A stretch of 64,000 bases of DNA from an uncultured archaeon (GCA_964358055.1 CAYHNT010000001.1:3308-67307), one strand, 5' to 3'; positions 9,330 to 50,580 are shown, counted from the first letter of the stretch. A program made the numbers and translations. The notes: generated from the letters alone by a model not told the origin.

Positions 9330-9334
9330 AAATA

Positions 9335-15656: not shown

Positions 15657-15706
15657 GTTTTTTTCACCGAGTTGGGGCTCTTAAAGGTTTAGTGCGTGTA
15701 GAGAAT

Positions 15707-16171: not shown

Positions 16172-16172
16172 A

Positions 16173-24399: not shown

Positions 24400-27300
24400 A
24401 TGAAGAAAAACCTGCTTCCGAGTATGAGCGTCTTAGATTCACTCAAGAATGTTTATTTTGAGCTTGAGGACAAATATTACGCTTTTTTGGACAAACTTCA
24501 AACCAAACTCCCCGTGTATTCAGTCGTTGATCCGGTGGATAAAATACTCCCCAGTTTTGGTATTCTCCTTGCCCTTGTGGTAGCAATTTTGGGCTTTGGT
24601 TTGTTCTCCGCGCTGGCAGGAGTGGGCGGGGGATTTGAGACGGTTGTTGAATTCAATGACACGCAAGGAAACCCCTTGGAAGGCGTGCAGGTTTCATTTG
24701 AACGTGATGGAAAATTAATCGAAACACTCTTTACGAAAGAAGATGGTTCTGCAACCACGAGCGTGGGGGCAGGAACTTATTTTATTACGGCCTCCAAAGA
24801 AGGCTATGTCGAATTAGTGGAAGAAGTGGAAATCAATTCCGCATTCACTCGAATTTTTACGCTTTCAAGCGCGACCCCTGAAACCACGCAGCGTGCGTTG
24901 TTGATTCAGGATGCACAGCAAGGAATTGTGGGAATGCTTTCACCGGTGGCCATCTCTCTTGCGTTCTCCTGTCAATCGGGAACGCCTCCTTCGAATCAAA
25001 CCGTGTACAATGGAAATGTTTCATTTTTGCAGCCCGGTGACTGTACCGGATTGAGTGTAACGATTTCAGCCAATGGTTTCCTGACTAAAACACAATCAAT
25101 CTTAGGCGACACTACCATTGTCGTGTTGCAATCCACTGCCGCATTTGAGCCCCCTCCTGAAACGGAACAACCCGATGCGGGAAGTGTAGAAATCATTGCA
25201 GTGGAGACCGGCGGTGCACCCTTGGAACAAGCACAAATAAAATTATACAAAATTCCAAGTGTAGGTTCTAACATTCTTGCAGACCAAGGATTGTCCGACC
25301 CGAATGGATTGTCTACGTTTTCAAACGTTACTCCCGGAAAGCACATCGTGATTGTGTCCAAGGCCGGATATAAACAAACTCAGAGTGCGGAATTCCAAGT
25401 CAATGCGGGGGAGAAAGCCACGTTGAATGTGGAAGTCGCCAAAAGCAGTTCTAAACGAAAAGTGTTTGTGAAAATTTTGAGTAGCGCCAATCAAATTATT
25501 GTTCTAGGCTCGAGTGTTTCATTGTTCGTGCAAACCGCGGGTGGAAAATACATTGAGTACGAGTCCTTCACCAGCGACACGAATGGAATAGTAAGCGCAC
25601 CCCTTGCGGATTTCAATGGGAACACCCAACTTGTCGTAACGCACGGAGATTTTGTCACCAAAATTTTACTCAACACGGGGATTGTTTCGGAAGACGCAGT
25701 GAGTCCCATTCCTATCTTACTCGATCCCTTAGCCGCACCCGGTTCAAACGGTAGCAGTTCGAACGCCGTTGTGGCAGATGTGAAAGTAATAGACGAAGTA
25801 GGATTGAGCGTGGTGAATGCGACTGTTCACTTGTACACGCCGGATGCAAATGGGGTGTTAGTTGGAACGCTTCAAACGAATACCCTTGGAATTGCACGAT
25901 TTACCAATCTTCCCGCCGGCACTTACCAAGCCACTGCCTCTACAAGCGTAGGCGATGGGGCAAGTCCTAAAATACAAGGAGATTTGGGTAAGATTATTGT
26001 ACTCCCTGTAAGCTTGTCTCTCGGAAACGCATTGGTGCAAGTGACAGTGAAAGATGAATTAGGTAAAGTAGTGACGGATGCGAATGTTTTCATTTATTCA
26101 TTTGTTGAAAACACCCTTCAATCTGCAAGTAAAACAAACGCACAAGGGTTGGCACAATTGGGTGTGATAACCGGACAAAAGGTGTATGTAAAAGTCGAGA
26201 AGGCTACCTATCTTCCTTTTTCATCTGTGCCGTTTGACGTGATCAAGGATAACACGCACATTATTCAGCTTGAAGTTAGTCTTACGAGCGCCTCGCAGGG
26301 AGTGGATGTTTCATTAACGAGTATTTACGAGCTCTCTGCGACGCAGGGACCAATTCTCGCACAAGCATTAGTGCCGGGTAACACGTATGCTTTCCATTTT
26401 GCAGTCAAAACGCCCGTGCAACAAACAGGAATGAAAGCAGTGGTGCGCGTGAACAAAGATTCTCCTGCTGCACAAGGCGCAACGGATGTGGGTAGCATTG
26501 TAGGTGGAAGCACGGCCAAAGGTGGCGTGGCGTTTTACACGACGTATAATTCAAATGATGAATTTTCTCCCTTGATTCCTGCAGACTCAGGAGTTCCCTC
26601 GAAAGTGGCATTGAATACGCTTGGAGATGTGAACGGTGCCAGTTCGTTTGAGTATATTGTGAATGTTAAAATTAATCCCGCTGCGCTACCCAACACGGAC
26701 AAGTTGGATGTGAAGTTCCAATCTAAAGGCGGCACGCAAGTTTCGCCCTTGTATTTTGAATCCTTCACCATCGGCGCACCTCTCCCTGGGCAAGGGGATT
26801 TTTCATTTGTCTTTTTCGTTTCCACGCAAGGAGGGACAAAGACTCAGGTGAGCTCGTCTGTTCCTTTGGTGATGTTCGCCCAGCAAGACTATGTGTTAGA
26901 CTACGTGATAACGAATACCTCGGGTAGCAACTTCCCCAGCGCCACCATGCTCCTCACTACGAATACTCCCGCGTCATTCACCGCCGCACCCAATCAGGTC
27001 TCGTTACCCGGATTCAACAATAGTTCTTCCGTGAGCGGGAGCATCACCATCAAGAGCACGCAAGAGTGTAGCAGTTCTCAAACGCAGTGTTCTACTCTCA
27101 CAGCAAACTTGAGTGGGGTAGGAACAGGAAATTCACCCACGAATTATCCCTTGTCCATTTTCACTTCTCCCGAGAAACAACTCGCGATGAATATTACTCC
27201 TTCCTATTTGATTCCGGCTCAAACACAATTAGTGCAAGTAGTAGTAACGGATCAATTGAGTAATCTTGCAGGGACATCTAAAGGAGTACAAGTGGAAGGC

Positions 27301-30300
27301 CAATTGGAAAACTCCTCCGGCGCCCCTCTTGGAAGTTCTATTCTTTTTACGGAATCAACCAATGCATTGTTTTTTGCTTCCATTCCTGCCGCGAGTGAGG
27401 TAAGCCAATTGCGCGTCACGGCATCCGCGGCAGGCTACGTATCAGATGTGGTAGTTCTTCCAGTTTCCAATCAGATTTTGTTGAATTATTCGCAGGACTT
27501 TAGTTGCGTGAGTTTGAATCCAAATCCTTTGTCTTTCAACTTGGGCGCATCCGGCTCGTTGAGCGTGCAAACCATTAGTTGCCCAGAGGACATTGATCTT
27601 TACACCACGGGCTTCTCTGAGAATAGCACTGTGATTCAATTGGCCGTGAAGAATGGTTCGAATACCATCACCTCGAGCAACCCCTTGTCCTTGAATGAGA
27701 GTGAATCCAAAACGTTAAGCGTGCAATCTCCTTCGTATTTTGGACAATACCCTTTGTACGTGTATGCTAAGTACAAGAGTCAGTCTACTTATTCCTTAGT
27801 CAAGAATGTCGATGTGATTGTCAATCCTCTTGCAGGAAGTTCCACGTGTTTAAATTTGTCCAAGTACGCGTTTGACGTGAAAGACGGTAGCGACAATGCA
27901 ACCGTAGTCAACAATTGTAATCCCGGCGTCCACGATGCGTTTTTGCCCCGTGCTGTGGTGAATGTGAATGGGGTATACGGTCATGCCATTCCTCCTGTAC
28001 TCACTCCTGAGATGCAAAACCCTGGTAGTTTGGTTCCCTTTTCATACCGTGTGAGTATGGATTATGATAATTCAACTAATTTGGATGTCAATCACGATGA
28101 TTTTCCTCAGTTTTTCACGGCATCCAATTGGAACCGATATGCTATCACTAATCCTGCTAAGTTTTTTACCCTGAAAAGCGAATTTGCTGGAGTCACTCCT
28201 GTTTTGATTAATGATGATCATTACAATGGTAGCGATTTCATTCTTGAAAGTCCAAACGATCCCCAAACCCCGTGGGCGGCTCCTGCAAGCGTGCGTTCGG
28301 TGTTGTTTGAAACCACCTTTGTCACGAGAAATGAAGTCACGCTCGATGAACTTTGTTTTACCTCCACCAATATCGATGCTATTCTGGTTCGAATTGATGG
28401 GGTGGATGTGCAGACCGCCCACTCTCCCAAATGTGCAATCCCCAATTATCTTTTTTCACCCGGGCCCCATGCGATTCAGATTTTCATGTATGCGGTAGAA
28501 GGTCAGAACTATACGCTGACTGTCAAATACAAAGACGCCCCTGCCACCACCGTTGGAAGCAATACGGGTGGATACGCTCCTCTTTCGGATGGTAAAAACA
28601 AGGGATTCTTTGTGAGTCCCTTGTATGGTATTCTATACAGCAATGACACCAAGAAGAACGGCCCCCTGTTACACGGTCCCTTTTCCAATGGAGTCATTCC
28701 CTCTACCAATAGTGTAACGCCTAAGTACATTGACAATGTAGGCGGGAATATTCAGTCGATTATTCGTAACAAAGCCGGTGGAATGGAGCACTTGAAGCAG
28801 TCCTATCTGCATATTTCCTCCACCAACCCCTCCGTGCGTACCTTCATGCATCACACGGATGCATATGCCCAATACGTTGGGTTCGACGACGCGACGGGAC
28901 AACAAGATATTGTATTTGAGAACTTGGGAATGGAAGGAGAAAAGTACGGTCTTCTTACGTTAACCGATTATTCACTCCCCACCAGTGCGTCGGGTAAAAC
29001 ACTCGATGTTGGGATTCTCTTGGATTCGTCTCCTTCTATTATTTTGAATGAGAATGATGAAACCTCCTCTTCAAGCGGAACCGTGTATCAGGAAGGACTA
29101 TGTAAGACGTTAATTGACATTAAGCGCGGATTGGAGTATTATTCCAACGCCACCATCAACATGCAAGTCGCATTGATGCACGACGTGAGTGATACGTATC
29201 ATGCGTCCTCGAATCAAGCACAAAATCTCCCGTGTTTAGCACAGTTTCCCAACATCACGGAGTTATTCCCTGGGCAATTTCCTGGTTACACGGAAGGCAC
29301 GCATAATTTGGATGAAGCCTGGGCATGGGGTGCACAAAAGTTTGCCTCGCATGCGTTTTGGAAAAACTCGACCAAATTAATGATTGTTGTCACGGACAAT
29401 AAGCCCACGGGATTGGGAAACGGAAAACTCACGACGGATTGGCAAGGGAGTATTGAGGAGTTGCACGTGAATAATGCGGCAACCGAATTAAATAATCGTG
29501 GAATTCGTGGAGTGGTATTGTACAAGTATCCTTTGGAATCTTCTTCGGAAGCAAACCACCCGGCAGGAAGCGATACCAAGCAGGATGCCGTGGAAATGTA
29601 TGAGTTGTTTGCCCAGCAAACGAATGGTTTCACGGAGGCATTAGACTTTTCGGAGCTCATCAACAATAACAACCCCCATTCCTTTGATCAGGCCGAATAC
29701 AATAAGGTGGCCATTCGTTTGTTACAACATGCGTTTCCTACTAAACAGGAAACCATTGTGGTGAAACTGGTCTCGCATCCCTTAGACGCGTGTATTGGGG
29801 AGAATGGGGAAGTGGGTGTTACTGGAAGCTCCGCGTTGCCTAAGGTTTCCTACAATTGGCAATGGGGTTCCACGCAACAAAACATGTGTGATTTCAAAAC
29901 AAACGATCCTACGAACTTCCGTTACTGTGACGCCACCCAATTCATGATTACGCTTACGCAAAAATTGTTTGCATTGGAACAAGCCTATGCACCGGGTGCC
30001 ACCCCTGCACAGCAAGCCCAAATCCCTTCCCTCACAAGTTTTGATGTGTACGTGATGCGCGACGCATTGAATGATGATTTTAGGAATGACTTTGTGGAGT
30101 TCTTTGTGAACAGCAGCTTCACCGACGCTCCTGCGTATTTCAAAAGCGCATTGGGCGGAGCATGGAAAGACTATGTAAACCCCGCATTCAACAAACTTAC
30201 GTTTGAAATTGATGGAAACCCCACTAATTCAATTGTGTCAGCGGGATTGTATCGTGCGCAAATTCAAGTCACGTGGGAAAGTGACGTGGGCACGTTCTTC

Positions 30301-31704
30301 GTGGCGAGTTCTCCTTCCGCACAAATTACAGTTAAGCTGACCAAGCTCGGAGATGCAAGTGGACTTTCAGGTTATTCTGAATTCCTCGAGCTTCCCTTGG
30401 ATGGCCTAATTGGTTTGGATGATTCCTCTCTGACATTCCATCGCAATGGGTACGGTACTGCTTTCACCGGACAAACCTTGGACTTAGTTCCCACTCCCGG
30501 CTTAACGTTACGAACGTATCCCAGTCAGCCCGGGCAAACGGCGTTGAACACGGTCAACGTGCCCGCGCTTCCTGCATTCAAAGAGTTGAACACGCAGAAT
30601 AGGGGTGAATTGGTGAGCTTCAACAAGAGCAGCGGAACGCTTTCCCTGCGTCCAAGTGTCCCCGCTCCCGTGTTAGGAAAATGGTCAAGCAATTCCTCAG
30701 GACAAGGACACCTATATTATGGGATTAGCGAAACTTCTTCTCAAGGCGGACAGAGCTACGTTTCTCATTCAACGGACACTGGAACACCCTTATCTAAATG
30801 GGTTCCCATTGCATCGGATTTAACCCAGAGCACATTCGGTTGCACCACCCCTAATTGTGATATTTGTTTGGATGCCGGAGGAAACGCCTTTGTTTCTTCG
30901 CTCAAGTTTGATTTAAACCCGGGAACAGGTGCATGCGGGTTACGTCCTCCTCTTACAAAAAATACGGCGTTTGGTTTTACGTCAACGGGTAGCGTGAGTA
31001 ATGAGTCGTATTTGAGTACGGTGTTCTATCGTGTCCCTGGAAATGATTATTCCATTATTTTAGGATGTAACGATTCGTCCTCCCAACAAATTGGAGCGAT
31101 TGCCACCCATTCAAGTGTGATTTCGAACGGTGGCGCATCCGTTGCGGGATTGGATTTAGGCTCGTCTTCGTTAGAGGATCAACTTGACAATGCGGTTTCG
31201 TTATACGGCATGCTTAATTTGATGGAAAGCAACTACACCTGTATCAACAACACGGCAGGCACGAGTCGCGTGTATTGGAATGCTCCGCGTTTGCGCGAGG
31301 ACTTGGCGAATGCAAAACCCTCATTTGGTCACATAGGAAATTCGTGTGTGGCAACTGGTAATCCATTAGGTGCAGCCGGAACGTTCACCTTGCTCTCCAA
31401 GAATGGAATCATTTCTCAGTCTCAAACCACGTTGGGGATGTGTCCGTTGTACAACAATAATAATGCCCAGAATGGGTATTATGCAAAACTTGGTGTGCCT
31501 TTTCCGGTTGGCACGCAGATTCGTTTCTTAGGATCAGGTGCCATTACGGATGACCCCTTGAATGGGGTGGTGCAGTATCGTTCGAATGCTACTAATTGTA
31601 CGCAGTTGACTTCATTGAATTGTCCGGGTCCAGGAACTCCGTTTGATTTTTGCTCCGCAAACACGGAAAGGTATTGGTCGGGCACTCCTGCAATTAACCC
31701 GTAA
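24400..31704 (+). CDS. Giant (2434 aa) N-terminally anchored surface protein with CarboxypepD_reg/Ig-like repeats and a vWA (MIDAS) domain
   Basis: N-terminal TM ILLALVVAILGFGLFSALAGV. Repeated G(T/K)Y.I.ASK.GY modules. DSSPS (DxSxS) at about nt 29015-29030 and MIVVTDNKPTG at about nt 29380. No C-terminal anchor. Confidence 0.75.
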   Translation: MKKNLLPSMSVLDSLKNVYFELEDKYYAFLDKLQTKLPVYSVVDPVDKILPSFGILLALVVAILGFGLFSALAGVGGGFETVVEFNDTQGNPLEGVQVSFERDGKLIETLFTKEDGSATTSVGAGTYFITASKEGYVELVEEVEINSAFTRIFTLSSATPETTQRALLIQDAQQGIVGMLSPVAISLAFSCQSGTPPSNQTVYNGNVSFLQPGDCTGLSVTISANGFLTKTQSILGDTTIVVLQSTAAFEPPPETEQPDAGSVEIIAVETGGAPLEQAQIKLYKIPSVGSNILADQGLSDPNGLSTFSNVTPGKHIVIVSKAGYKQTQSAEFQVNAGEKATLNVEVAKSSSKRKVFVKILSSANQIIVLGSSVSLFVQTAGGKYIEYESFTSDTNGIVSAPLADFNGNTQLVVTHGDFVTKILLNTGIVSEDAVSPIPILLDPLAAPGSNGSSSNAVVADVKVIDEVGLSVVNATVHLYTPDANGVLVGTLQTNTLGIARFTNLPAGTYQATASTSVGDGASPKIQGDLGKIIVLPVSLSLGNALVQVTVKDELGKVVTDANVFIYSFVENTLQSASKTNAQGLAQLGVITGQKVYVKVEKATYLPFSSVPFDVIKDNTHIIQLEVSLTSASQGVDVSLTSIYELSATQGPILAQALVPGNTYAFHFAVKTPVQQTGMKAVVRVNKDSPAAQGATDVGSIVGGSTAKGGVAFYTTYNSNDEFSPLIPADSGVPSKVALNTLGDVNGASSFEYIVNVKINPAALPNTDKLDVKFQSKGGTQVSPLYFESFTIGAPLPGQGDFSFVFFVSTQGGTKTQVSSSVPLVMFAQQDYVLDYVITNTSGSNFPSATMLLTTNTPASFTAAPNQVSLPGFNNSSSVSGSITIKSTQECSSSQTQCSTLTANLSGVGTGNSPTNYPLSIFTSPEKQLAMNITPSYLIPAQTQLVQVVVTDQLSNLAGTSKGVQVEGQLENSSGAPLGSSILFTESTNALFFASIPAASEVSQLRVTASAAGYVSDVVVLPVSNQILLNYSQDFSCVSLNPNPLSFNLGASGSLSVQTISCPEDIDLYTTGFSENSTVIQLAVKNGSNTITSSNPLSLNESESKTLSVQSPSYFGQYPLYVYAKYKSQSTYSLVKNVDVIVNPLAGSSTCLNLSKYAFDVKDGSDNATVVNNCNPGVHDAFLPRAVVNVNGVYGHAIPPVLTPEMQNPGSLVPFSYRVSMDYDNSTNLDVNHDDFPQFFTASNWNRYAITNPAKFFTLKSEFAGVTPVLINDDHYNGSDFILESPNDPQTPWAAPASVRSVLFETTFVTRNEVTLDELCFTSTNIDAILVRIDGVDVQTAHSPKCAIPNYLFSPGPHAIQIFMYAVEGQNYTLTVKYKDAPATTVGSNTGGYAPLSDGKNKGFFVSPLYGILYSNDTKKNGPLLHGPFSNGVIPSTNSVTPKYIDNVGGNIQSIIRNKAGGMEHLKQSYLHISSTNPSVRTFMHHTDAYAQYVGFDDATGQQDIVFENLGMEGEKYGLLTLTDYSLPTSASGKTLDVGILLDSSPSIILNENDETSSSSGTVYQEGLCKTLIDIKRGLEYYSNATINMQVALMHDVSDTYHASSNQAQNLPCLAQFPNITELFPGQFPGYTEGTHNLDEAWAWGAQKFASHAFWKNSTKLMIVVTDNKPTGLGNGKLTTDWQGSIEELHVNNAATELNNRGIRGVVLYKYPLESSSEANHPAGSDTKQDAVEMYELFAQQTNGFTEALDFSELINNNNPHSFDQAEYNKVAIRLLQHAFPTKQETIVVKLVSHPLDACIGENGEVGVTGSSALPKVSYNWQWGSTQQNMCDFKTNDPTNFRYCDATQFMITLTQKLFALEQAYAPGATPAQQAQIPSLTSFDVYVMRDALNDDFRNDFVEFFVNSSFTDAPAYFKSALGGAWKDYVNPAFNKLTFEIDGNPTNSIVSAGLYRAQIQVTWESDVGTFFVASSPSAQITVKLTKLGDASGLSGYSEFLELPLDGLIGLDDSSLTFHRNGYGTAFTGQTLDLVPTPGLTLRTYPSQPGQTALNTVNVPALPAFKELNTQNRGELVSFNKSSGTLSLRPSVPAPVLGKWSSNSSGQGHLYYGISETSSQGGQSYVSHSTDTGTPLSKWVPIASDLTQSTFGCTTPNCDICLDAGGNAFVSSLKFDLNPGTGACGLRPPLTKNTAFGFTSTGSVSNESYLSTVFYRVPGNDYSIILGCNDSSSQQIGAIATHSSVISNGGASVAGLDLGSSSLEDQLDNAVSLYGMLNLMESNYTCINNTAGTSRVYWNAPRLREDLANAKPSFGHIGNSCVATGNPLGAAGTFTLLSKNGIISQSQTTLGMCPLYNNNNAQNGYYAKLGVPFPVGTQIRFLGSGAITDDPLNGVVQYRSNATNCTQLTSLNCPGPGTPFDFCSANTERYWSGTPAINP

Positions 31705-35432: not shown

Positions 35433-35879
35433 TTGTTTGGAATGAAAACGATAATGGTAGTAGTAGGATTTTTAGTTGTCCTTTCCTCCGGCTGCCTTTA
35501 TTCATCCACTTCCCTCCCCCCTCAAGCGTGTTTTGGTGAGGATTGTTTTTTCATTGAAATTGCCGACACGTCTGAGGAACGTGCTTTAGGATTGATGGGA
35601 CGTGAATCCCTTTCAGCCAATCAGGGAATGCTGTTCGTTTTTGAGAGTGAGTCCATTCATGGTTTTTGGATGAAAAACACGTTGATTTCATTGGATGCGA
35701 TTTGGATCAATGCGCAAAATCAAGTGGTGGATGTGAAAACCATGGTTCCGTGTGAGAAAGACCCTTGTCACGTGTACAATCCAAACGGTAGTTCATTGTT
35801 TGTGTTGGAGATAAACGCTGGGCTTGCAAATGAGTATACTATTCAGCCCGGCGACGTGGTTCACATTTCGGGCGTATGA
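35433..35879 (+). CDS. DUF192 (COG1430) family protein with an N-terminal membrane anchor
   Basis: ALGLMGRESL..GMLFVFESE...FWMKNTLISLDAIW matches DUF192. Confidence 0.7.
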   Translation: MFGMKTIMVVVGFLVVLSSGCLYSSTSLPPQACFGEDCFFIEIADTSEERALGLMGRESLSANQGMLFVFESESIHGFWMKNTLISLDAIWINAQNQVVDVKTMVPCEKDPCHVYNPNGSSLFVLEINAGLANEYTIQPGDVVHISGV

Positions 35880-36484
35880 TGCGTAAGCACATGCGTGCTT
35901 TCGTCTGGGGGTGCTAAGCTTTGCGTGAGTTCCACAAAGTTGTCCACGGCCTGATCCAAGAAGCTTTGTTTGAAAGTAACTAATATTTTCTGTGCCTCAT
36001 GAGGACTACTCAGCGTGAAGAAGCTCTTTCTTCCTGCGCGCTCTTTTTTCAACACGCCTGCTTCAACGAGTTTATCCAAGTGCCAGCTTGTGGTAGAGGG
36101 AGAAAGGTTGATTTCTTGGGCAATCCGTTCGTTATTCGCACGTTTTTCATTCAGTAAAAATAAAATGATTTTTCTCGTTGATTCGTGGCGTAAAAAGGCC
36201 ATCGTATTTTGCCCCGAAGAAAACTGCTCCCCTTCCCCCACTTGGGGTCCGCGCACGGAATAATAGCGTACAAACTTTCCTTCTTTCTGGGTGCGGATAA
36301 TGTGGTGTTTTTGCAAGTAATCTAAATGGTATTGTAGACTTCCCACGGCCAAACTCGTGCGTCGTTGGATCTCCCTGAAGTGTAATCCGGGCGACTGTTC
36401 AATTTCGGAGTATATTTTTTTCCTTACTCCTAATTGGAGTGCCTTTTCAAATCCTGCGTCATCAGCCATGAGGAATACACTCAC
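35861..36484 (-). CDS. Transcriptional regulator with two winged-helix (ArsR/TrmB-like) domains
   Basis: Two ~90-aa repeats, each with an HTH-like segment (REIQRRTSLAVGSLQYHLDYLQKHHII; NERIAQEINLSPSTTSWHLDKLVEAGVL). Confidence 0.6.
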   Translation of the reverse strand: MSVFLMADDAGFEKALQLGVRKKIYSEIEQSPGLHFREIQRRTSLAVGSLQYHLDYLQKHHIIRTQKEGKFVRYYSVRGPQVGEGEQFSSGQNTMAFLRHESTRKIILFLLNEKRANNERIAQEINLSPSTTSWHLDKLVEAGVLKKERAGRKSFFTLSSPHEAQKILVTFKQSFLDQAVDNFVELTQSLAPPDESTHVLTHHTPEM

Positions 36485-36487: not shown

Positions 36488-36889
36488 TTATTTTTCTCTC
36501 CGTGGAGAAAAGATGGCGAATGCAATCATGGCGAGGCTGGCGAGCTCGAGTACGTTTTCCGCGTGATCGGGGAAAAATTGTCCCGTGCTCACGAACAAAT
36601 CCATGACTTTGAGCAACCATTTGAATGCAATAAAACCAAATGCAATGGCAATCCACTTGACGCGAGAAGAGGGGTTTCGTTTCCAGGCGAGGAACCCTAT
36701 CACAAAAATGGCAACCGAGAATACAAACACGATGATACGTGTGGCGTAGTCGAACTGCTGCGCCTCATTCGTGAGAATACGTAATGGGTTGGTAAAGAAT
36801 CCTATTGCCTCGTTGGCGTGAACCATTGGAATCAAAAGTAGTACAATCCATAGAAGGATGAATTTTTTAGTCATATTTCCACCTCTCAC
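36488..36889 (-). CDS. Small polytopic membrane protein (hypothetical)
   Basis: 133 aa with 4 hydrophobic segments. Confidence 0.45.
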   Translation of the reverse strand: MRGGNMTKKFILLWIVLLLIPMVHANEAIGFFTNPLRILTNEAQQFDYATRIIVFVFSVAIFVIGFLAWKRNPSSRVKWIAIAFGFIAFKWLLKVMDLFVSTGQFFPDHAENVLELASLAMIAFAIFSPRREK

Positions 36890-37096: not shown

Positions 37097-38458
37097 ATGT
37101 ACGGACTTAGACGGGCGCAGAGCTCATTGGAATACTTGCTTCTCATTGGGGGGGTCGTGCTGATTGCGGCCGTGGTGATGCTGGTTATTTTTACAAATGT
37201 GATTCCTGCGGGAGAAGGGATTTTACAAAATAACTTAGTTCAATCCGGAAATGAAATTACGGCATCCGGATACAAATGTGGAAACGGTTCGTTGGACGCC
37301 GGAGAGGCCTGCGATCCTGTTGGTTTTGCGTGTGTGAATGGAAATGCGTGTCAGAATAATTGTTCATGCGGTAGTCCTCCTTCTGCGTACGGGGGTCCCA
37401 TTTCATTGGATTGGGGAACTATTGCGCATACGGATTATGCGGAACTGGTTAGCACTGCACAAAAAAGTGTGAGTGGTTTCAAAATTAAAAACGATGGAAC
37501 TTCTCCTATTGTGATTGAAAAAATATCCGTGTTTTATTCGTTCGCCAGTCCGCACCCCGCACTGTACCTTCCCCTTCCTTCTTCTCTTTCTACTCTTTCG
37601 TTTCGCGACTCCTTTTCAGCGAATGTGCTGACGCTCAACAACGTTGCATCGGGATCAATCATCACGCTCATGAATCCCATTACGCTTGGCGCGGGAGAAG
37701 AGTGGACCGGTTCACTTGTTTTTAATCAACCCATTTTCCCTATTTATCAAGTGGATGCAGGAGGGGGCGTTTTTCATTATTTTCCCGCTGCGGGGTCCCA
37801 CTTCATGCAGGTGCAATTCACGGATGATGCGGGAGCCCTTCATCGTCCACCTTCATTGAATGATTTTTTGTCCTATGAGAAAGGAGATGGTTTAGGTGGA
37901 TTGGACCCCTACATTAACGTCTGCAATGCCGGAGCGAGTATTCCCTCCGGAGACGTGTTTGGGGTTGCCACTGACTTGTGTGACGGGGAACCCTGCGCGT
38001 ACACGAAGGACTTCGGATACTCCACCGTGTTTCAATTCCCCTTTCCTCTTCCCGTTTCATTTGATACTATTCATTCCCAGTTTTTTGCCACGCAGGATAA
38101 CGCCATTGTGGTGGGGGCAGGGCAGTATGGTGATGCCGACCCCTATTCGTTTGTGAAAGGAGGCGTTAGTTGTGACCCGATCATCTTTGATGATGTCGAG
38201 GAAACGGGAAACACTCCTGGAATCACTGCCTCTCCCGTGGATGCCGATGGGGTCTTTCCTGAAGTCAAGTATTTTGATGTAGATGGGCTCATTTCCCCTG
38301 GAGAAGACCGTGTATTCTTTTCCCTGGTGGGGGCCGACTCTCCTTCGTATGGGATGGATAGTCAAGGCTGGAGATGGTGGCGTTCGGGACACTATTTGGG
38401 GCCAGTGGATGGGTATCCGTTTCCTTTCTTTCTATTTCGATATAGCGTTCCTGGGTGA
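37097..38458 (+). CDS. Archaeal type IV pilin-like protein (class III signal peptide) with one Cys-rich repeat
   Basis: MYGLRRA|QSSLEYLLLIGGVVLIAAVVMLVIF is a prepilin-type signal. CGNGSLDAGEACD is a Myxococcus-type Cys-rich repeat. Confidence 0.65.
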   Translation: MYGLRRAQSSLEYLLLIGGVVLIAAVVMLVIFTNVIPAGEGILQNNLVQSGNEITASGYKCGNGSLDAGEACDPVGFACVNGNACQNNCSCGSPPSAYGGPISLDWGTIAHTDYAELVSTAQKSVSGFKIKNDGTSPIVIEKISVFYSFASPHPALYLPLPSSLSTLSFRDSFSANVLTLNNVASGSIITLMNPITLGAGEEWTGSLVFNQPIFPIYQVDAGGGVFHYFPAAGSHFMQVQFTDDAGALHRPPSLNDFLSYEKGDGLGGLDPYINVCNAGASIPSGDVFGVATDLCDGEPCAYTKDFGYSTVFQFPFPLPVSFDTIHSQFFATQDNAIVVGAGQYGDADPYSFVKGGVSCDPIIFDDVEETGNTPGITASPVDADGVFPEVKYFDVDGLISPGEDRVFFSLVGADSPSYGMDSQGWRWWRSGHYLGPVDGYPFPFFLFRYSVPG

Positions 38459-38522
38459 CGTGACTCTATATTTATAAAGCAAGGAAGGATGGTCAACATG
38501 GATTAAGGGGAATTGGGAAAGC

Positions 38523-39611
38523 ATGCATTCAACACTAAAACGTAATTCAGGTCAGGGTGCACTGGAATACTTATTATTAATCGGCGGTGCTGTGCTGATT
38601 GCCACCATCATTATGGTGATTGCTCTTACTCAAATTTTTCCCGCAAGTAGTGATATTGTGAATGATAATCTTAGTCAATATCAAAACCAGATTACTTTGA
38701 ACGCATTCGGTTTGGGCGGGGGATCAGGAAGTGGTTCTGTTTGTGGAAATGATATTGCGGAATCCGGGGAAGTCTGCGATGGTGTTGATTTGGATGGAGA
38801 AACGTGCGTGTCCCAATCATTCGCGGGCGGAACATTGGCCTGTGCTTCTAATTGCTTGAGTTTTGATACCAGTAGTTGTACGTCCCCCCCTACTTGCGGT
38901 AATGGAACCATTGGTAGCGGCGAAACATGCGACGATGGTGCGGCCCTTTCAGGTGATGGATGTAGTTCATCGTGCCAAGTTGAAGCCGGATGGAACTGTT
39001 CAGGTGAACCAAGTACTTGTACTTCAATATGTGGAGATGCACTTGTGGTAGGAACCGAAGTGTGTGATGGTGCTAATTTGAACGGACAATCGTGTACGAC
39101 ATTGGGATCGGGATATACGGGTGGGACTCTCTCTTGTGCAGGCACCTGTAACACATTTGTTACTTCATCCTGTAATCAGACTGTTTTGTTTGAAGTGGAA
39201 AATTATGCTTCACTAGGTGCGGGATTGCAAGTAGATAGTGCTACGTACTCTCCTGAATCCGTGGTGACGTTCTTAACGGGATGTACGGCAGCAAATAACA
39301 CCAATACGTATTCAAACTTCAATGTCCCAGTTGCGGGTAACTACAACGTGTGGGTGAAAGCGGACAACGTCGCAGGAGTAGCAGTTTCGTTTAATACAAC
39401 AGTCATTACAGCCGCCGGCTCTACGATTATCCCTGTTCCAAGCTCAGCCACTATTGCCACATGGTCGGGAGGCACTACTGTCGCATTACCTGTGGGTGCT
39501 TCGACTCGCAATGTGCAGATTCAGTGTAATGCCAACCTGCGCGTGGACAAAGTGATGATTACCAACAACACCACGTGTACGCCTACTGGAAACGGCTCGA
39601 ACTGTTCGTAA
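38523..39611 (+). CDS. Archaeal type IV pilin-like protein with three Myxococcus-type cysteine-rich repeats
   Basis: SG|QGALEYLLLIGGAVLIA signal. Three CG(N/D)..G.GE.CD...GD/GE.C repeats at about nt 38740-39100. Confidence 0.65.
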   Translation: MHSTLKRNSGQGALEYLLLIGGAVLIATIIMVIALTQIFPASSDIVNDNLSQYQNQITLNAFGLGGGSGSGSVCGNDIAESGEVCDGVDLDGETCVSQSFAGGTLACASNCLSFDTSSCTSPPTCGNGTIGSGETCDDGAALSGDGCSSSCQVEAGWNCSGEPSTCTSICGDALVVGTEVCDGANLNGQSCTTLGSGYTGGTLSCAGTCNTFVTSSCNQTVLFEVENYASLGAGLQVDSATYSPESVVTFLTGCTAANNTNTYSNFNVPVAGNYNVWVKADNVAGVAVSFNTTVITAAGSTIIPVPSSATIATWSGGTTVALPVGASTRNVQIQCNANLRVDKVMITNNTTCTPTGNGSNCS

Positions 39612-41169: not shown

Positions 41170-41562
41170 TCACGTCTTCTGTGCGAACTGTATTTCGATT
41201 GATTTGAAGGGGGTGGTGACGAGTACATTTTTTCCTAGTTTTTTGAGTTCTACTAGGTTCATGGTGGCTAATTGATGCAAATCGCGAGAGATAGCGGTTT
41301 GTTTTCGATTCGTTTTTTGGGCAATAGCACCTACTTCTTTTGCTTCCGATGGATTGTATGACATGAGTTGTTTCAATAAATCCAGTTTGGCTGGGGAAAG
41401 CAAACGGTGTAGTTGTTCGTAACTATTCACATAGAAAACATTCCGGGGGTGAGTTTTCCAAGCATGGGGGTCGGTGAATAATCGATCTTCATCGTCCTCC
41501 ATGTTTCCCCCGACAATAATGGTCAAAATAGTGCTTGGACGTTTTTGTTTCATCATAAACAA
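41170..41562 (-). CDS. Putative winged-helix transcriptional regulator
   Basis: 130 aa. LLKQLMSYNPSEAKEVGAIAQKTNRKQTAISRDLHQLATMNLVE is HTH-like. Confidence 0.45.
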   Translation of the reverse strand: MFMMKQKRPSTILTIIVGGNMEDDEDRLFTDPHAWKTHPRNVFYVNSYEQLHRLLSPAKLDLLKQLMSYNPSEAKEVGAIAQKTNRKQTAISRDLHQLATMNLVELKKLGKNVLVTTPFKSIEIQFAQKT

Positions 41563-41591
41563 GTAACCTCTATGTTATATATTAATCTTCT

Positions 41592-41939
41592 CTACCTCAA
41601 CTCCTTTGGAAGATAACGTATGCAAAATTGGATCATGCGTTCTTCCCAATTGGCTCTTGTTTCATTTCGAGCGTGCTGATATAACCCATAGGATAATGGA
41701 ATTTCTGGTTTTTCGATTCGATTGGTATGACCTAAATAGTTTCGATGGATATTGTAACAGCCATGCGAAAAATCGTGTTTGATAATCTCATGAGTGTGTT
41801 CATCCGTATCAATAAATAGCTGGATTACTGCAAAATTGATTAGCTCCTTCGTGTGCGCGTCATACACAATGTTGGTCCGAAGGACATTTCGTTCCTTCAG
41901 ATCGAGATACTTCTGACTTTTCTGCACAATAATTGGCAT
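41592..41939 (-). CDS. Hypothetical protein, co-directional with and 29 nt upstream of the HTH gene
   Basis: 115 aa. No motif recognised. Confidence 0.35.
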   Translation of the reverse strand: MPIIVQKSQKYLDLKERNVLRTNIVYDAHTKELINFAVIQLFIDTDEHTHEIIKHDFSHGCYNIHRNYLGHTNRIEKPEIPLSYGLYQHARNETRANWEERMIQFCIRYLPKELR

Positions 41940-44197: not shown

Positions 44198-46447
44198 CTA
44201 AACGCTGCAGTAGCTATACCCGCAGTCCATGCAGGTGGCGCAACCCTCTTGCATGTGGAGCTTGTTTCCTCCGCACTTCTCGCATTTCTTGGTTTCTCCC
44301 TTTGACAAGTCATGGGCCTTCATGACCTTAGCCTTGAAGTCCTCTTCCACTTGCTTGTTTGATTTTCCTTCCACGTTCAAATTGAGTACCTGGTTTTCGA
44401 ATCCCTTGCTTCCATCCCTGTAAATCGTGACACCTTTGCATCCGAGTTTGTATGCTAGCATGTACACTTCGCGCACCTCGTCTACTCCCGCGTCGTGAGA
44501 GAAATTAACGGTCTTGCTAATCGCGTTGTCCGTGTATTTCTGCCATGCTGCTTGCATGCGGAGATGCCAATAGGGGGTAATGTCATGTGCACATACGAAG
44601 ACGTTGCGCACGTCTTCAGGGATTTCAGTCAAATGATGCAATGTTCCCTGTGCAGCTATTTTTTCCATCAATTCCTCGTTATAGAATCCGCGTTTGATGG
44701 CGGCCTCTTTGAATATCTCATTCACGTACAACAATTCCTGCCCGTCCATCACGCGTTTAACGAATGAAATAGCAAACAATGGTTCGATTCCACCTGAACA
44801 ATCCGCAATCATGGAAATCGTTCCCGTGGGTGCAATCGTTATGCGTGCGCAGTTACGGAAAGTAGGCCCCTCGGGCGTGTCATAGGTGCTTCCTTTGTGG
44901 TGGAGGAAAACGCCTTTCTCTTTTCCTAACTCCTGCGACATGGCATCCGCCTCTTCGCGAATAAACTTGGCCATTTTCTCTGCAAACGAACAACCCTCTT
45001 CCGAGTTGTACGGAATGTTTAATTTAAACAACAAATCGGCCCAGCCCATGACTCCTAATCCAATGCGTCGGTTTCCCTTGTTCATGTGTTCGATTTGGGG
45101 AATCACATACTTGTTCATGTCAATCGTGTTGTCTAAGAAACGAACCGCCGTGCGAACCGTTTCGCGCAAACGAGACCATTCGACTTGTCCATCATGCGTG
45201 ACGTATTTGACGAGGTTGATGATTCCTAAATTACAAGAGTCATACGGACCCAAGGGCTGCTCTCCACAAGGATTCGTGGCTTCAATTTCGTAAATATGTG
45301 AAATGGTATTATCCCTGTTGATTCGGTCAATGAAAATGATTCCCGGATCTCCTGTTTTCCATGCACTCATCACGAGGTCTTCAAACAATAGTTTAGCGTT
45401 CTCTCGGCGCACCACCTGCTGATTGGAGGGATTGATGAGTTCGAAATCCTCATCTTTTTCAACCGCTTCCATGAACTTTTCTGTAATTGCCACGGAGATG
45501 TTGAAGTTGTTGATTTTGGTAATATCGTCCTTACAGTGAATAAATTCGTGAATATCGGGATGATCCACGCGCAGAATACCCATGTTGGCCCCGCGGCGTT
45601 TTCCTCCCTGCTTAATCACTTCAGTTGACGCGTTGTACACGGACATGAATCCCACAGGACCGGTGGCCACTCCCTTCGTGCTTTTCACAATGCTCCCTTT
45701 AGGACGAATACGTGAAAAAGAGAAACCCGTTCCTCCGCCAGACTGGTGGATTAATGCCTGGTGTTTCATCGTCTCGTAAATCGATTCCAAATTGTCCTCA
45801 ATGGGTAAAACAAAGCACGCCGATAATTGTTGCAACGGCGCCCCGGCGTTCATTAATGTGGGTGTATTGGGCATGAATTCCATTTTTTCCATCAAATGAG
45901 AAAATTGTTCAGTCCAATAGTGTACTGTTTCATCCGTTCCCCCATACTTTAATTCGGCCTGCGCAATGTTTCCTGCGACGCGCTTCCAAAGTTGTTCGGG
46001 CGTCTCCTTTACTTTTCCCACTTCGTCCTTCAACAAGTAGCGTTCCTTCAACACGCGTAATTGATTGATTCCCACATTCGTGTCGACGTTCAACCCTAAC
46101 ATCGTGCGCTTGAGGTCGCGTTCTTCGGTTCTTTTTTGTCGGTATAAAATATAGGACTTGGCTACTTTGGTTTCCCCTGTCTTCATCAATTCCTCTTCCA
46201 CAATATCTTGAACGTACTCCACGGAGGGAATGCTTTCCTCGGGGTGCTTCTCTCGTTCCTGGATCAATCGTTCCATGATGCGATCCGAGATACGCAAGGA
46301 GGTGGTTTCGTCGTCCTTTCCTGTGGCGTGGAATGCTTTGGTAATGGCGAGGGTTATTTTGTCCTGATTAAAAGAGACTACGGCCCCGTTTCTTTTTTTG
46401 ATGTTAGGGATTAATGTCTGGATTTGAGCATCATGCATATGTTCCAC
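44198..46447 (-). CDS. nrdJ: Adenosylcobalamin-dependent ribonucleotide reductase (class II, NrdJ) with N-terminal ATP-cone
   Basis: 749 aa. ATP-cone KKRNGAVVSFNQDKI. Class II core. C-terminal CEKCGG...CATCMDCGYSYC zinc-ribbon-like tail. Confidence 0.9.
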   Translation of the reverse strand: MEHMHDAQIQTLIPNIKKRNGAVVSFNQDKITLAITKAFHATGKDDETTSLRISDRIMERLIQEREKHPEESIPSVEYVQDIVEEELMKTGETKVAKSYILYRQKRTEERDLKRTMLGLNVDTNVGINQLRVLKERYLLKDEVGKVKETPEQLWKRVAGNIAQAELKYGGTDETVHYWTEQFSHLMEKMEFMPNTPTLMNAGAPLQQLSACFVLPIEDNLESIYETMKHQALIHQSGGGTGFSFSRIRPKGSIVKSTKGVATGPVGFMSVYNASTEVIKQGGKRRGANMGILRVDHPDIHEFIHCKDDITKINNFNISVAITEKFMEAVEKDEDFELINPSNQQVVRRENAKLLFEDLVMSAWKTGDPGIIFIDRINRDNTISHIYEIEATNPCGEQPLGPYDSCNLGIINLVKYVTHDGQVEWSRLRETVRTAVRFLDNTIDMNKYVIPQIEHMNKGNRRIGLGVMGWADLLFKLNIPYNSEEGCSFAEKMAKFIREEADAMSQELGKEKGVFLHHKGSTYDTPEGPTFRNCARITIAPTGTISMIADCSGGIEPLFAISFVKRVMDGQELLYVNEIFKEAAIKRGFYNEELMEKIAAQGTLHHLTEIPEDVRNVFVCAHDITPYWHLRMQAAWQKYTDNAISKTVNFSHDAGVDEVREVYMLAYKLGCKGVTIYRDGSKGFENQVLNLNVEGKSNKQVEEDFKAKVMKAHDLSKGETKKCEKCGGNKLHMQEGCATCMDCGYSYCSV

Positions 46448-49548: not shown

Positions 49549-49943
49549 TTTTTTTCACGCTCCACTAAGAAGTAGGTATCGGACATACGATATTAAAAAG
49601 AGATTCGGCAACCCGTTATAAAAAGTCAAACGTATGTTTGGTGTATGACTGATAAATTACAAAAAAAAGCAAGAAAAAAAATCAATAAGAAACCGAAAAG
49701 TATGTTCGGAGTTTTGAAAGGAAAATTGGGTCCTTTTACGCGCGAAGACAGATGGAACGATCGAGAATGACTTAGTGCTAATTTCCCCCCTGTTTGATAG
49801 TTCAACCACTTAACCATTCCTTGGCTTTTTTTCATCGCGTTTGATTTCGAAAAGTGGTATTTTTTCACGGAACTTTAGCTTCCAAAGCTTTTTATTTCGC
49901 AATTATTATATACGTGTTCCCACATAAGTGCTATGTGGTGTTT

Positions 49944-50192
49944 ATGCCGAATATGACCCTCTCCTTCCCACCTGAAACGAAGAAGCGTATGGAACAGCAT
50001 CCGCATGTGCGCTGGTCAAATGTAGTACGTACTATCATTGAACAAAAATTAGACGATTTTGAGGAAGCGGAGCGACTGGCTAAAAAGAGCCGCTTAACTC
50101 AAAAGGATGTGGATGAACTTACTGCAAAGGTGAATCAGGGCATGCGGAAGCGCGCGGAGGCGATGTTGCATGAACATCACCGTCGACGCTAA
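49944..50192 (+). CDS. vapB: Putative VapB-like antitoxin (RHH/CopG-like)
   Basis: 83 aa overlapping the PIN gene by 23 nt. Charged helical C-terminus. A 7-bp inverted repeat (49920-49938) lies 6 nt upstream of the ATG. Confidence 0.4.
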   Translation: MPNMTLSFPPETKKRMEQHPHVRWSNVVRTIIEQKLDDFEEAERLAKKSRLTQKDVDELTAKVNQGMRKRAEAMLHEHHRRR

Positions 50193-50580
50193 TGTTCTCT
50201 TTTCAGCACTCTTGAAAGATAGCGGTACTCGTCATCTCTGGTTTAATCCGGAGTTCACCTTATTTGCCCCCGCTTATTTGCGGATCGAATTCACCAAATA
50301 TGAAGGGGAATTGCGCAGAAAATTTACAGGCACGGATAAGGAATTTATAGAATGGGCTGCCAAATTCTTTGCACAAATCCGATTTATTCAAGATGAAGAG
50401 TTAGCCCCCTTTCTTCCGGCAGCCGCTTCTCTGATTCATGATCCTAAAGACTGGCTTTATTTGGCATGTGCACTAAAGGAAAATACCATTATTTGGAGCC
50501 AGGATAAAGGATTCAAAGAACAGAAACGAATTTCGATAAAAACGACGAACGAATTGATGGAAGAATTTGGAGGACTTTGA
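50170..50580 (+). CDS. vapC: PIN-domain ribonuclease (VapC-like toxin)
   Basis: MNITVDANVLFSAL with conserved Asp6, later DPKD and SQDKGF acidic residues. 136 aa. Confidence 0.6.
   Translation: MNITVDANVLFSALLKDSGTRHLWFNPEFTLFAPAYLRIEFTKYEGELRRKFTGTDKEFIEWAAKFFAQIRFIQDEELAPFLPAAASLIHDPKDWLYLACALKENTIIWSQDKGFKEQKRISIKTTNELMEEFGGL

Follow-up and report, generated by a model that had tools for sequence, protein, structure and literature searches.

The window analysed here is a 64 kb stretch of DNA from an uncultured groundwater archaeon, for which a placement among the DPANN is suggested by a single marker (AspRS) together with the source labels. At 37097-39611 it carries two ORFs on the same strand, separated by a gap of 64 bp and encoding proteins of 453 and 362 aa (hereafter proteins 1 and 2), exactly where the first-pass annotation had placed them. 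The features of the two genes, counted from the first letter of the window, are as follows.

37097..38458, + strand: protein 1 (P0121), modular class III signal pilin-like protein; ORF of 453 aa, PF04021 25.5 bits
37097..37117, + strand: leader peptide MYGLRRA of protein 1, from the sequence motif; predicted cleavage between A and Q
37118..37240, + strand: pilin module of protein 1, alpha-1 helix only (QSSLEYLLLIGGVVLIAAVVMLVIF, then the ILQNNL helix), E at +5; AF2 helices 10-34 and 36-48
37277..37369, + strand: degenerate 6-Cys module of protein 1, CGNGSLDAGEACDPVGFACVNGNACQNNCSC; 50-63% identity to canonical units, closest copies in CPR bacterial proteins
37394..38455, + strand: two beta-rich domains of protein 1 (about aa 100-260 and 270-453), 4 Cys
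38523..39611, + strand: protein 2 (P0001), modular class III signal pilin-like protein; ORF of 362 aa, PF04021 22.9 bits, TIGR02232 56.1 bits, DUF4215 43.5 bits
38523..38552, + strand: leader peptide MHSTLKRNSG of protein 2, from the sequence; predicted cleavage between G and Q
38553..38690, + strand: pilin module of protein 2, alpha-1 helix only (QGALEYLLLIGGAVLIATIIMVIAL, then DIVNDNLSQYQNQITL); AF2 helices 12-38 and 43-56
38703..38741, + strand: flexible Gly/Ser-rich linker of protein 2 (FGLGGGSGSGS), from the sequence; the Gly-rich stretch is conserved in the family
38742..38879, + strand: Cys module 1, type B, 6 Cys; 62.0 bits with the type-B HMM, alone no TIGR02232 match
38895..39020, + strand: Cys module 2, canonical TIGR02232 unit plus C-terminal extension, 6 Cys; 58.3 bits, DUF4215 32 bits
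39030..39173, + strand: Cys module 3, type B, 6 Cys; 53.6 bits with the type-B HMM, DUF4215 19.9 bits (below cut-off)
39174..39608, + strand: predicted CBM6/CBM35-fold beta-sandwich of protein 2, 4 Cys, conserved tail C-x-P-T-G-x-G-S-N-C; AF2 pLDDT 70-84

Class III signals and the pilin-type helix

Protein 1 begins with MYGLRRA followed by QSSLEYLLLIGG, and protein 2 with MHSTLKRNSG followed by QGALEYLLLIGG, so that both present a G/A at position -1, Q at +1 and E at +5. Both match PF04021 (Class_IIIsignal, or DUF361, of the QxSxExxxL type), in agreement with the class III (prepilin) signals that had been claimed for them: with the Pfam gathering cut-off at 23.7 bits, protein 1 passes and protein 2 lies marginally under, and the matches of both are precomputed in the protein database. 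Each has a short basic leader with G/A as its last residue and, behind it, Q+1, E+5 and a hydrophobic stretch of 20 residues or more (MYGLRRA before QSSLEYLLLIGGVVLIAAVVMLVIF; MHSTLKRNSG before QGALEYLLLIGGAVLIATIIMVIAL). The residue at -2 is S in protein 2 and K or R in its homologues, and the class III motif itself is invariant across the family. In a six-frame regex scan of the 64 kb, no long ORF other than these two combined a QxSxExxxL-type motif with a hydrophobic stem. In both proteins the AF2 helices lead straight into the linker, with no globular pilin head predicted.

Counterparts of these N-termini lie in a complete filament locus from a related Ca. Diapherotrites MAG (L015), in which the gene order is a T2SSE ATPase, two T2SSF genes, five pilins of 47-56 aa and a Peptidase_A24/Arc_PepC gene. 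The first 17 mature residues of protein 2, QGALEYLLLIGGAVLIA, are identical (17/17) in two of these pilins, which are 56 aa long and helix-only, and the identity amounts to 20-21/30 overall; protein 1 agrees with the short pilins of that locus at 16-18 of its first 30 mature positions. As had been noted, the two proteins greatly exceed structural pilins in size, the related filament-locus pilins having 47-56 aa. Pfam scans of all ORFs of at least 250 aa and of most smaller ones revealed no prepilin peptidase, secretion ATPase or platform protein in the window, and in none of the ten related loci examined (0/10) do the corresponding genes adjoin filament machinery. In a recent archaeal TFF survey, System 1 (Epd) is described as combining headless pilins with an ATPase and a pair of platform genes, and it is reported in DPANN too (bioRxiv 10.64898/2026.04.22.720090).

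These observations bear on another account, according to which the two are ordinary Sec-secreted or misannotated proteins whose prepilin resemblance is a matter of chance. The PF04021 score of protein 2, slightly under threshold, would be in line with it, but a Glu within the hydrophobic core, a G/A-Q junction ahead of the hydrophobic stretch and the 17/17 identity to filament-locus pilins are incompatible with a Sec signal, and neither the invariance of the motif in the family nor its occurrence in just two long ORFs of the window favours coincidence. The N-termini, for which an ordinary Sec signal had been named as the adverse outcome, are thus pilin-type and not Sec-type; we have rejected the Sec signal reading, and consider this account as a whole to be very improbable.

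Cysteine-rich modules and C-terminal beta domains

The cysteine-rich part of the proteins was compared with TIGR02232 (myxo_disulf_rpt, a cysteine-rich acidic repeat), which has a curated cut-off of 20.8 bits. Protein 2 as a whole scores 56.1 bits; when its modules are scanned singly only aa 123-159 behave as a canonical unit (58.3 bits), and modules 1 and 3 give no TIGR02232 match and at most sub-threshold DUF4215 ones. The latter two correspond to a longer and widespread variant, CGNGxxExGExCDGxxLxGxxCxxxGFxGGTLxCxxxCxFDTSxC, which we designate type B and have scored with an HMM of our own, built from 114 such units in homologues. Modules 1 and 3 of protein 2 and the module of protein 1 have the head CGNGxxxxGExCD in common with the canonical unit; there are 6 Cys per module and 4 per C-terminal domain.

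A weaker relationship was observed for protein 1. Over about 30 aa its module, CGNGSLDAGEACDPVGFACVNGNACQNNCSC, shares 50-63% identity with canonical units of multi-repeat bacterial proteins, but it gives no TIGR02232 or Pfam match even at E<=10, the whole protein has no TIGR02232 match at E<=1, and the score on the self-built HMM is 7.1 bits; with pairwise similarity but no HMM match, it counts as a degenerate unit, which the curated test leaves outside the family. The orthologues P0122, P0123 and P0124 of protein 1 have no Cys module, and a scan of a genome collection with protein 1 returned only CPR bacterial proteins having the Cys module in common. Hence, of the one repeat in protein 1 and three in protein 2 announced by the first-pass annotation, three 6-Cys modules do exist in protein 2, only one of them being canonical, and the profile check it had proposed succeeds for protein 2 and fails for protein 1. 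The repeats do not follow the hydrophobic stem immediately, as had been stated, for a second helix and a Gly-rich linker intervene. Nor is the association of Cys repeats with a pilin N-terminus a one-off: a pilin-type N-terminus was found in at least 23 of 123 retrieved proteins, attributed to DPANN archaea, most of them with Cys module(s) and variable domains. AF2 confidence over the Cys-repeat region is low (pLDDT 23-40), meaning that this region is not modelled reliably, and a literature search for TIGR02232 had no returns. Overall, a repeat family curated from myxobacteria emerges as a cross-domain building block, with variants missed by the current curated models.

The C-terminal parts of both proteins are predicted to be carbohydrate-binding-type beta-sandwiches. 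In a Foldseek search against the PDB with aa 218-362 of protein 2, nearly all of the best 45 or so matches are CBM6/35/36 modules or enzymes bearing them; the match to 2cdp_B has an E of 1.9e-5 and a TM of 0.75 over 137 columns, and single-domain CBM6/35 targets give TM values of 0.70-0.75 at 12-20% sequence identity. For the model of protein 1 the best fold matches are polysaccharide-binding modules, namely alginate- and glycosaminoglycan-/chondroitin-sulfate-binding CBMs. In both proteins these assignments come from predicted structures with 8-20% sequence identity to the matches, and a Pfam scan at E<=1 returned no CBM family, the only match being a weak one to Golvesin_C (14.6 bits for a cut-off of 31.6). 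Among the retrieved proteins the C-terminal domain of protein 2 occurs almost only together with the pilin N-terminus, and that of protein 1 is rare, with about 9 representatives among 1.84 billion proteins. The central idea of the first-pass annotation, pilin-like proteins bearing adhesive modules, is thus sustained in part, by the class III signal, by the TIGR02232 unit of protein 2, by the modelled CBM-type sandwiches and by the 17-residue identity of protein 2 with filament-locus pilins.

A gene slot of variable content

Comparison of ten related loci indicates that the two genes occupy one slot, which holds from 0 to 3 such genes with differing architecture and which is bordered by an HTH regulator and a small membrane protein on one side and an AsnRS-like gene on the other.

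35861..36484, - strand: double winged-helix regulator (HTH_HVO_0163_N + HTH_24) adjoining the slot; 69-82% identical in relatives
36488..36889, - strand: left slot boundary, 133-aa membrane protein (weak DUF5985/DUF7521), divergent; position kept in the related loci reaching that far, 62-70% identity
39631..41061, - strand: right slot boundary, AsnRS-like class II aminoacyl-tRNA synthetase, convergent; position conserved, 78-88% identity

Most flanking genes are 62-88% identical between relatives at about full length (46-59% for the DUF192 flank), and the slot genes have 27-38% identity or partial matches. The true start of the AsnRS-like gene is probably internal, because its homologues have 431 aa. 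Both left-hand neighbours may be relevant to the slot: the membrane protein could be functionally linked to its genes, and the winged-helix regulator could act on them. A mobile-element or viral origin of the slot was also considered and set aside; gene tables list no integrase, transposase or tRNA at its boundaries, and the GC content, 46-48%, is unremarkable.

The N-terminus is common to 93 retrieved proteins, ranging from 56 to 1226 aa, and in one of the related loci (L011) one occupant of the slot is an 830-aa penicillin-amidase-family enzyme with an N-terminus as in proteins 1 and 2. The presence of this N-terminus on an enzyme suggests that the helix may be a general surface anchor and not strictly a filament subunit. 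Indeed, surface display could be achieved without a pilus, the helix serving for export and membrane anchoring or forming a short bindosome-like pseudopilus, as proposed for Sulfolobus sugar-binding proteins, in which case proteins 1 and 2 would be lectins or polysaccharide-capture proteins on a Cys-rich stalk. The fused enzyme and proteins of up to 1226 aa are hard to fit in a filament body, the slot genes stand apart from filament machinery in all ten loci, and functional domains unrelated to pilins have been documented on archaeal class III signal proteins in the same preprint (bioRxiv 10.64898/2026.04.22.720090). However, the near-identity of the alpha-1 helix to that of bona fide short pilins from a filament locus exceeds what anchoring needs, and in bacteria Glu+5 and a flexible Gly linker let bulky modular pilins join filaments (PMC8179133). 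We regard display without a pilus as a possible, though clearly less probable, explanation.

A further alternative concerns what the distal domains would bind. Instead of mediating adhesion to a host, the CBM-like domains may tether the cell to environmental polysaccharides (biofilm matrix, plant or algal glycans), or harvest them, in concert with secreted hydrolases. The closest folds are indeed those of CBM6/35 modules from glycoside hydrolases and of CBMs that bind alginate or chondroitin sulfate, and the window encodes further large secreted proteins; yet proteins 1 and 2 have no catalytic domain, no glycoside hydrolase gene adjoins them, and the extreme variability of the slot between genomes typifies recognition or attachment molecules more than polysaccharide-binding accessories. 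Nutrient scavenging thus appears unlikely to us. It touches only the ligand and fits either anchoring model.

Interpretation and comparison with known systems

The pilin-like N-termini, the Cys-rich spacers, the predicted sugar-binding domains and the changing slot together make proteins 1 and 2 candidate attachment proteins. The explanation we favour, with a probability of about 0.62, is that they are archaeal modular pilins acting as glycan-binding adhesins. The short basic leader would be removed by the class III (prepilin) signal peptidase before Gln+1, leaving a mature start that would correspond to a type IV pilin alpha-1 helix, with Glu+5, some 28 hydrophobic residues and an amphipathic continuation; such a pilin module would be headless, as in Flp/Tad and Epd major pilins. 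Behind it, the Gly-rich linker together with the 6-Cys modules (one to three, presumably held by disulfide bonds) could form a stiff spacer ending in the putative CBM6/35-like sandwich (protein 2) or in the two beta domains (protein 1). Through its helix the protein may join an Epd/Tad-like type IV filament, at the tip or elsewhere, whose subunits would be helix-only pilins of about 50 aa, a step suggested only by the N-terminal identity with filament-locus pilins; minimally, the helix would keep the protein in the membrane. The distal domains would then bind glycans on a host cell or surface. The locus behaves like a fast-evolving cassette slot, in keeping with selection for changing binding specificity in a DPANN archaeon whose cells are probably attached to others.

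More tentatively, we propose that the locus as a whole may determine specificity, a broader reading that we hold to be rather improbable. The slot would be a recombination-prone site dedicated to this purpose in a DPANN lineage. Cys-rich spacers and lectin domains (an enzyme in one relative) would be swapped behind a constant pilin helix, and an Epd/Tad-like filament would thereby be directed to different glycans of hosts or surfaces, the Cys blocks being common to CPR bacteria and Myxococcota of the same groundwater. If correct, polymorphic recognition receptors, of which TraA is one, would have a counterpart in archaea, and the host range of uncultured episymbiotic archaea could be approached directly from genomes.

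To our knowledge, little has been learned of how DPANN archaea recognise partners or surfaces and attach to them, since hardly any are in culture. Adhesive modular pilins of the kind we favour would offer concrete candidates for this function, in which a conserved pilin helix acts as carrier, the spacer is disulfide-capable and the heads are predicted to bind glycans. Genomes that are otherwise syntenic differ in what the slot contains, and in metagenomes this variation could be correlated with the hosts present. The 'modular pilin' idea, established in bacteria (PMC8179133, PMC9934059), would also be extended to archaeal helix-only pilins.

The architecture of modular pilins, an N-terminal pilin module, a linker and a functional module unrelated to the pilus, is present in both proteins, with the pilin module reduced to the alpha-1 helix. 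The bacterial examples, from Streptococcus sanguinis, are PilB and PilC, whose grafted modules are of the vWA and the ConA-like lectin type, respectively (PMC8179133, PMC9934059). Like these, proteins 1 and 2 have a class III signal and a pilin alpha-1 carrier, a linker and a grafted adhesive or lectin-type module. PilB and PilC, as minor pilins, greatly exceed the major pilin in size and are proposed to adhere to glycans or proteins, and the same would apply here. The differences lie in the archaeal host, the helix-only pilin module, the Cys-rich spacer, a predicted CBM6/35-like instead of a ConA-like lectin fold and the location of the genes in a variable slot away from the machinery. The survey of modular pilins was based on the bacterial IPR012902 signature and does not mention archaea (PMC8179133).

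Among archaeal systems, the QxSxExxxL-type N-terminus is that of Epd/System 1 and other DUF361 proteins (PF04021), and the Ca. Diapherotrites locus has the features of System 1: an ATPase, two platform genes, headless short pilins and a dedicated A24 peptidase. The described Epd pilins, however, are small structural subunits, whereas proteins 1 and 2 have 362-453 aa, predicted lectin-type domains and Cys repeats and are encoded outside a pilus locus. A second parallel is the bindosome of Sulfolobales, in which a class III signal and N-terminal helix are likewise fused to a ligand-binding domain foreign to pilins, and a system resembling type IV filaments is needed for surface display. The bindosome proteins are solute-binding proteins of ABC transporters, and neither that fold nor a neighbouring transporter is present here; conversely, the Cys repeats and predicted CBM folds are absent from the bindosome. 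A keyword search for pilins with Cys repeats found none in PMC4858521, which does not cover DPANN, or in bioRxiv 10.64898/2026.04.22.720090.

The remaining comparisons concern the distal modules. With aa 123-159 as a full-scoring unit, protein 2 resembles the TIGR02232/DUF4215 proteins of Myxococcota, other bacteria and eukaryotes; typical TIGR02232 members, however, are secreted bacterial or eukaryotic multi-repeat proteins with Sec signals and T9SS tails or other anchors, unlike the one to three units found here behind an archaeal pilin helix. The C-terminal domain of protein 2 differs from known CBM6/CBM35 in having no attached enzyme, in its extra disulfide-capable Cys and in its conserved C-terminal Cys loop. 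Finally, a distal lectin-type domain carried on a 'rigid stalk' of cysteine-rich repeats is also the design of Myxococcus xanthus TraA (PMC3325183), which is described as highly polymorphic between strains (PMC6372800). TraA is a bacterial outer-membrane protein with a PA14 lectin-like fold and the repeat TIGR04201, not TIGR02232 (PMC3325183), and NCBIfam and Pfam scans revealed no PA14, TIGR04201 or MYXO-CTERM in proteins 1 and 2. Given the different repeat family, we have rejected TraA as a relative; it is an analogue and not a homologue, with a reversed topology in which the anchor is C-terminal (MYXO-CTERM) in TraA and N-terminal in the archaeal proteins.

Prepilin signals and a helix-only pilin module

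Two neighbouring ORFs, 64 bp apart, lie exactly where the first-pass annotation had placed a tandem of pilin-like genes:

37097-38458, forward strand: protein 1, 453 aa
38523-39611, forward strand: protein 2, 362 aa

The class III signals claimed for both are borne out by the motif, protein 1 opening with MYGLRRA followed by QSSLEYLLLIGGVVLIAAVVMLVIF and protein 2 with MHSTLKRNSG followed by QGALEYLLLIGGAVLIATIIMVIAL. Judged by sequence, these N-termini are prepilin signals of the QxSxExxxL/DUF361 type and not Sec signals, because each has a short basic leader, a glycine or alanine at -1, Gln+1 and Glu+5 within the hydrophobic core; a Sec signal is effectively excluded. Against Pfam PF04021 (Class_IIIsignal) protein 1 passes the 23.7-bit cut-off (25.5 bits) and protein 2 falls marginally under it (22.9 bits). 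A six-frame search of the 64 kb for Q-x-[SAGT]-x-E-x3-[LIVM] preceding a hydrophobic stem returned these two as the sole long ORFs, besides one 43-residue remnant. The mature forms of both are acidic, with a pI of about 4.1; N-x-S/T sequons number ten in protein 2.

A globular pilin head is missing from both proteins. The AlphaFold model of protein 2, built on a 14-sequence alignment, contains helices at 12-38 and 43-56, and the pilin module of both proteins is predicted to consist solely of the alpha-1 helix, like the major pilins of the Flp/Tad and Epd types. Prepilin peptidase, secretion ATPase and platform protein are absent from the window ORFs scanned. A profile search retrieved P0258, a 56-aa protein from a 'Ca. 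Diapherotrites archaeon' that bears the NCBI annotation class III signal peptide protein and belongs to the following locus:

L015, 2729-11713, forward strand: complete type IV filament locus of a 'Ca. Diapherotrites' MAG, in the order T2SSE ATPase, T2SSF, T2SSF, five pilins of 47-56 aa, Peptidase_A24/Arc_PepC

The T2SSE ATPase is interrupted by two inteins. An ATPase, two platform genes and headless pilins are likewise the description given of archaeal 'System 1' (Epd-type) filaments in a recent survey, which reports these filaments in DPANN too (bioRxiv 10.64898/2026.04.22.720090). The first 17 mature residues of protein 2 are identical to those of two L015 pilins (20-21 of the first 30), and protein 1 has 16-18 of its first 30 mature residues in common with pilins of this locus. 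This identity, found in a related genome and not in this one, is the strongest evidence pointing to a real pilin module in the two proteins.

Cysteine modules and C-terminal domains

One Myxococcus-type repeat had been assigned to protein 1 and three to protein 2, immediately after the hydrophobic stem. In both proteins another helix and a linker rich in Gly intervene, and the canonical repeats number one, not four. The TIGR02232 model does match protein 2 (56.1 bits, cut-off 20.8), as does DUF4215 (43.5 bits). When the modules of protein 2 were scanned one by one against both models, only aa 123-159 proved to be a canonical TIGR02232 unit (58.3 bits); for module 1 (aa 74-119) and module 3 (aa 170-217) there was no TIGR02232 match and, at best, a sub-threshold DUF4215 score. 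These two represent a longer variant, here called type B (consensus CGNGVIEGGEECDGADLGGETCASLGFAGGTLACAADCTFDTSGC), and score 62.0 and 53.6 bits, respectively, with an HMM rebuilt from 114 units of homologues.

The corresponding segment of protein 1, CGNGSLDAGEACDPVGFACVNGNACQNNCSC, had no match among the curated models, with the limit set as loosely as E<=10. It shares 50-63% identity over about 30 residues with canonical units of multi-repeat bacterial proteins, is absent from the protein 1 orthologues, and is treated here as a degenerate unit. The nearest copies of this module (CGNGxxDAGEACDP...CxC) are in CPR proteins (Saccharibacteria, Paceibacterota), which hints that the modules may be shared between ultrasmall bacteria and archaea; they are carried by a 631-aa Cys-rich surface protein of Saccharibacteria (L004, 1709-3604, forward strand) and a 96-aa Paceibacterota protein (L005, 55-345, forward strand). 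Every module contains exactly six cysteines and each C-terminal domain four.

In the protein 2 model the repeat region has no modelled fold (pLDDT <40), and aa 220-362 form a confident beta-sandwich (pLDDT 70-84). Of the top ~45 Foldseek matches of this model in the PDB, almost every one is a CBM6/CBM35/CBM36 module or an enzyme bearing one, with 2cdp_B in first place (E 1.9e-5, TM 0.75).

The combination of pilin helix and Cys modules is a recurrent family, not a singleton. Protein 2 gave 194 matches, the majority through the repeats alone; examples with names come from Polyangia and Myxococcota and also some Woesearchaeota and Aenigmatarchaeota. A near-invariant N-terminus, (K)GQG(A/S)LEYLLLIGG, was present in 23 of the 123 proteins fetched by then, followed by a Gly linker, none to three Cys modules, in some proteins an FN3-like domain, and a C-terminal domain, either CBM-like with the conserved tail C-x-P-T-G-D-G-S-N-C or of protein 1 type. 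The CBM-like domain was paired with this N-terminus in 14 of 15 fetched cases, the exception being N-terminally truncated. The N-terminal helix had hundreds of matches in the profile search, in proteins ranging from 56 to >1200 aa; the protein 1 C-terminal domain is rare (about nine carriers when 1.84 billion representatives were searched exhaustively by profile).

A variable slot among housekeeping genes

The window is made up of housekeeping genes of an archaeon, among them Nop5, fibrillarin, NMD3, AspRS, an AsnRS-like synthetase, ribonucleotide reductase and Dus. By its AspRS the organism belongs to the DPANN archaea, the nearest named relatives being 'Ca. Diapherotrites' (73-77%), Nanoarchaeota (73%) and Woesearchaeota (70%). 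Hainich groundwater is the source of a copy of the locus that is identical to this one. Both genes are flanked on one side by a divergently transcribed HTH_HVO_0163-type regulator together with a membrane protein of ~130 aa, and on the other by the AsnRS-like gene; this position is a variable slot.

Slot contents in ten related loci
L001, L002, L009, L013: protein-1-type gene plus a different partner (Cys/CBM, Cys/FN3/CBM or Cys/protein-1-like)
L006/L007, L008: one gene
L012: one protein of 714 aa, containing two type-B modules, FN3 domains and the CBM tail
L011: three genes, one of them for a penicillin-amidase-family enzyme of 830 aa that has the same N-terminus
L014: empty

Flank proteins are 62-88% identical to those of the window over about their full length (DUF192 lower, 46-59%). 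Protein 1 and its orthologues, where present, share 27-38%, the helix alone matching in other loci, and protein 2 gives partial matches or 28% over its full length. Because the L011 amidase (15427-17919, reverse strand; N-terminus KGSLEYLLLIAGAIL) bears the same N-terminus in the same slot, the helix may be a general surface-display carrier. The main rival reading, that the helix is an export and anchoring device only, giving bindosome-like display, draws on this fusion and on the very large family members; we consider it rather unlikely.

Other features were noted in the window. Some 5 kb upstream of the slot lies the gene of a giant 2434-aa surface protein (24400-31704, forward strand), which has a membrane segment at its N-terminus and CarboxypepD_reg/SpaA/Ig-like repeats. 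It is another fast-evolving surface protein, since identity is only 47-50% despite its kept position in related genomes. Four consecutive ORFs with signal peptides (17419-22350, forward strand) match no family, the last (921 aa) having a weak Peptidase_M64/reprolysin-like zinc-protease motif, and a membrane-anchored 131-aa protein (7428-7823, reverse strand) has an internally duplicated 2-Cys motif (EDCAAAGxPI..YP..C..P.G.T). Ribonucleotide reductase (44198-46447, reverse strand; 749 aa) is without intein; in L006, L008, L011 and L012 it has one or two intein/LAGLIDADG insertions (1157-1427 aa). A LAGLIDADG_3 homing-endonuclease ORF (8283-9446, reverse strand) probably starts downstream of tRNA-Thr (9335-9406), because its mechanically called N-terminus overlaps that gene. 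An Rfam tRNA (14056-14133, forward strand; 54.8 bits) missed by ARAGORN may be atypical or intron-containing. Toxin-antitoxin- or regulator-like pairs are HVO_A0114 with DUF7718 (41170-41939, reverse strand), near whose position relatives have a ParE-toxin pair or, in some, a PIN-domain gene, and a small ORF followed by one PIN-like by eye (49854-50580, forward strand).

Proposed function and known systems

We favour, with a probability of about 0.6, archaeal modular pilins that are filament-borne and glycan-binding. We infer that the leader is cleaved, that the protein joins a filament, that disulfides form and that glycans are bound: a class III peptidase would remove the leader; by means of the alpha-1 helix the protein would be built into an Epd/Tad-like filament or sit at its tip; the spacer would consist of the Gly linker and the Cys modules, which are disulfide-capable; and the CBM-type domains would bind glycans of a host cell or surface, with specificity retargeted through slot diversification. 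Polysaccharide scavenging instead of host adhesion seems improbable. The original suspicion proved real and largely right, the corrections being the single canonical repeat, the HMM failure of protein 1 and the recurrence of the family; lectin-type folds, the helix-only module, the variable slot and the Epd-like machinery link in a relative go beyond it. Adhesive pilin-like proteins in DPANN archaea should not astonish specialists; the slot offers a concrete, testable handle on attachment specificity.

Myxococcus TraA resembles these proteins in its lectin-like head, Cys-rich 'rigid stalk' and anchor, but its repeat is TIGR04201, its head PA14 and its anchor C-terminal, so that it is an analogue only. 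Archaea are known to have class III signal proteins that carry functional domains, such as bindosome solute-binding proteins (bioRxiv 10.64898/2026.04.22.720090). By keyword, no Cys-repeat/lectin architecture of this kind was found in the 2016 archaeal pilus census, where DPANN are unmentioned, or in the 2026 TFF preprint. The modular-pilin survey used a bacterial pilin signature and does not mention archaea (PMC8179133). The nearest functional concept is the bacterial modular pilin, as exemplified by PilB and PilC of S. sanguinis, the latter bearing a lectin (PMC8179133, PMC9934059).
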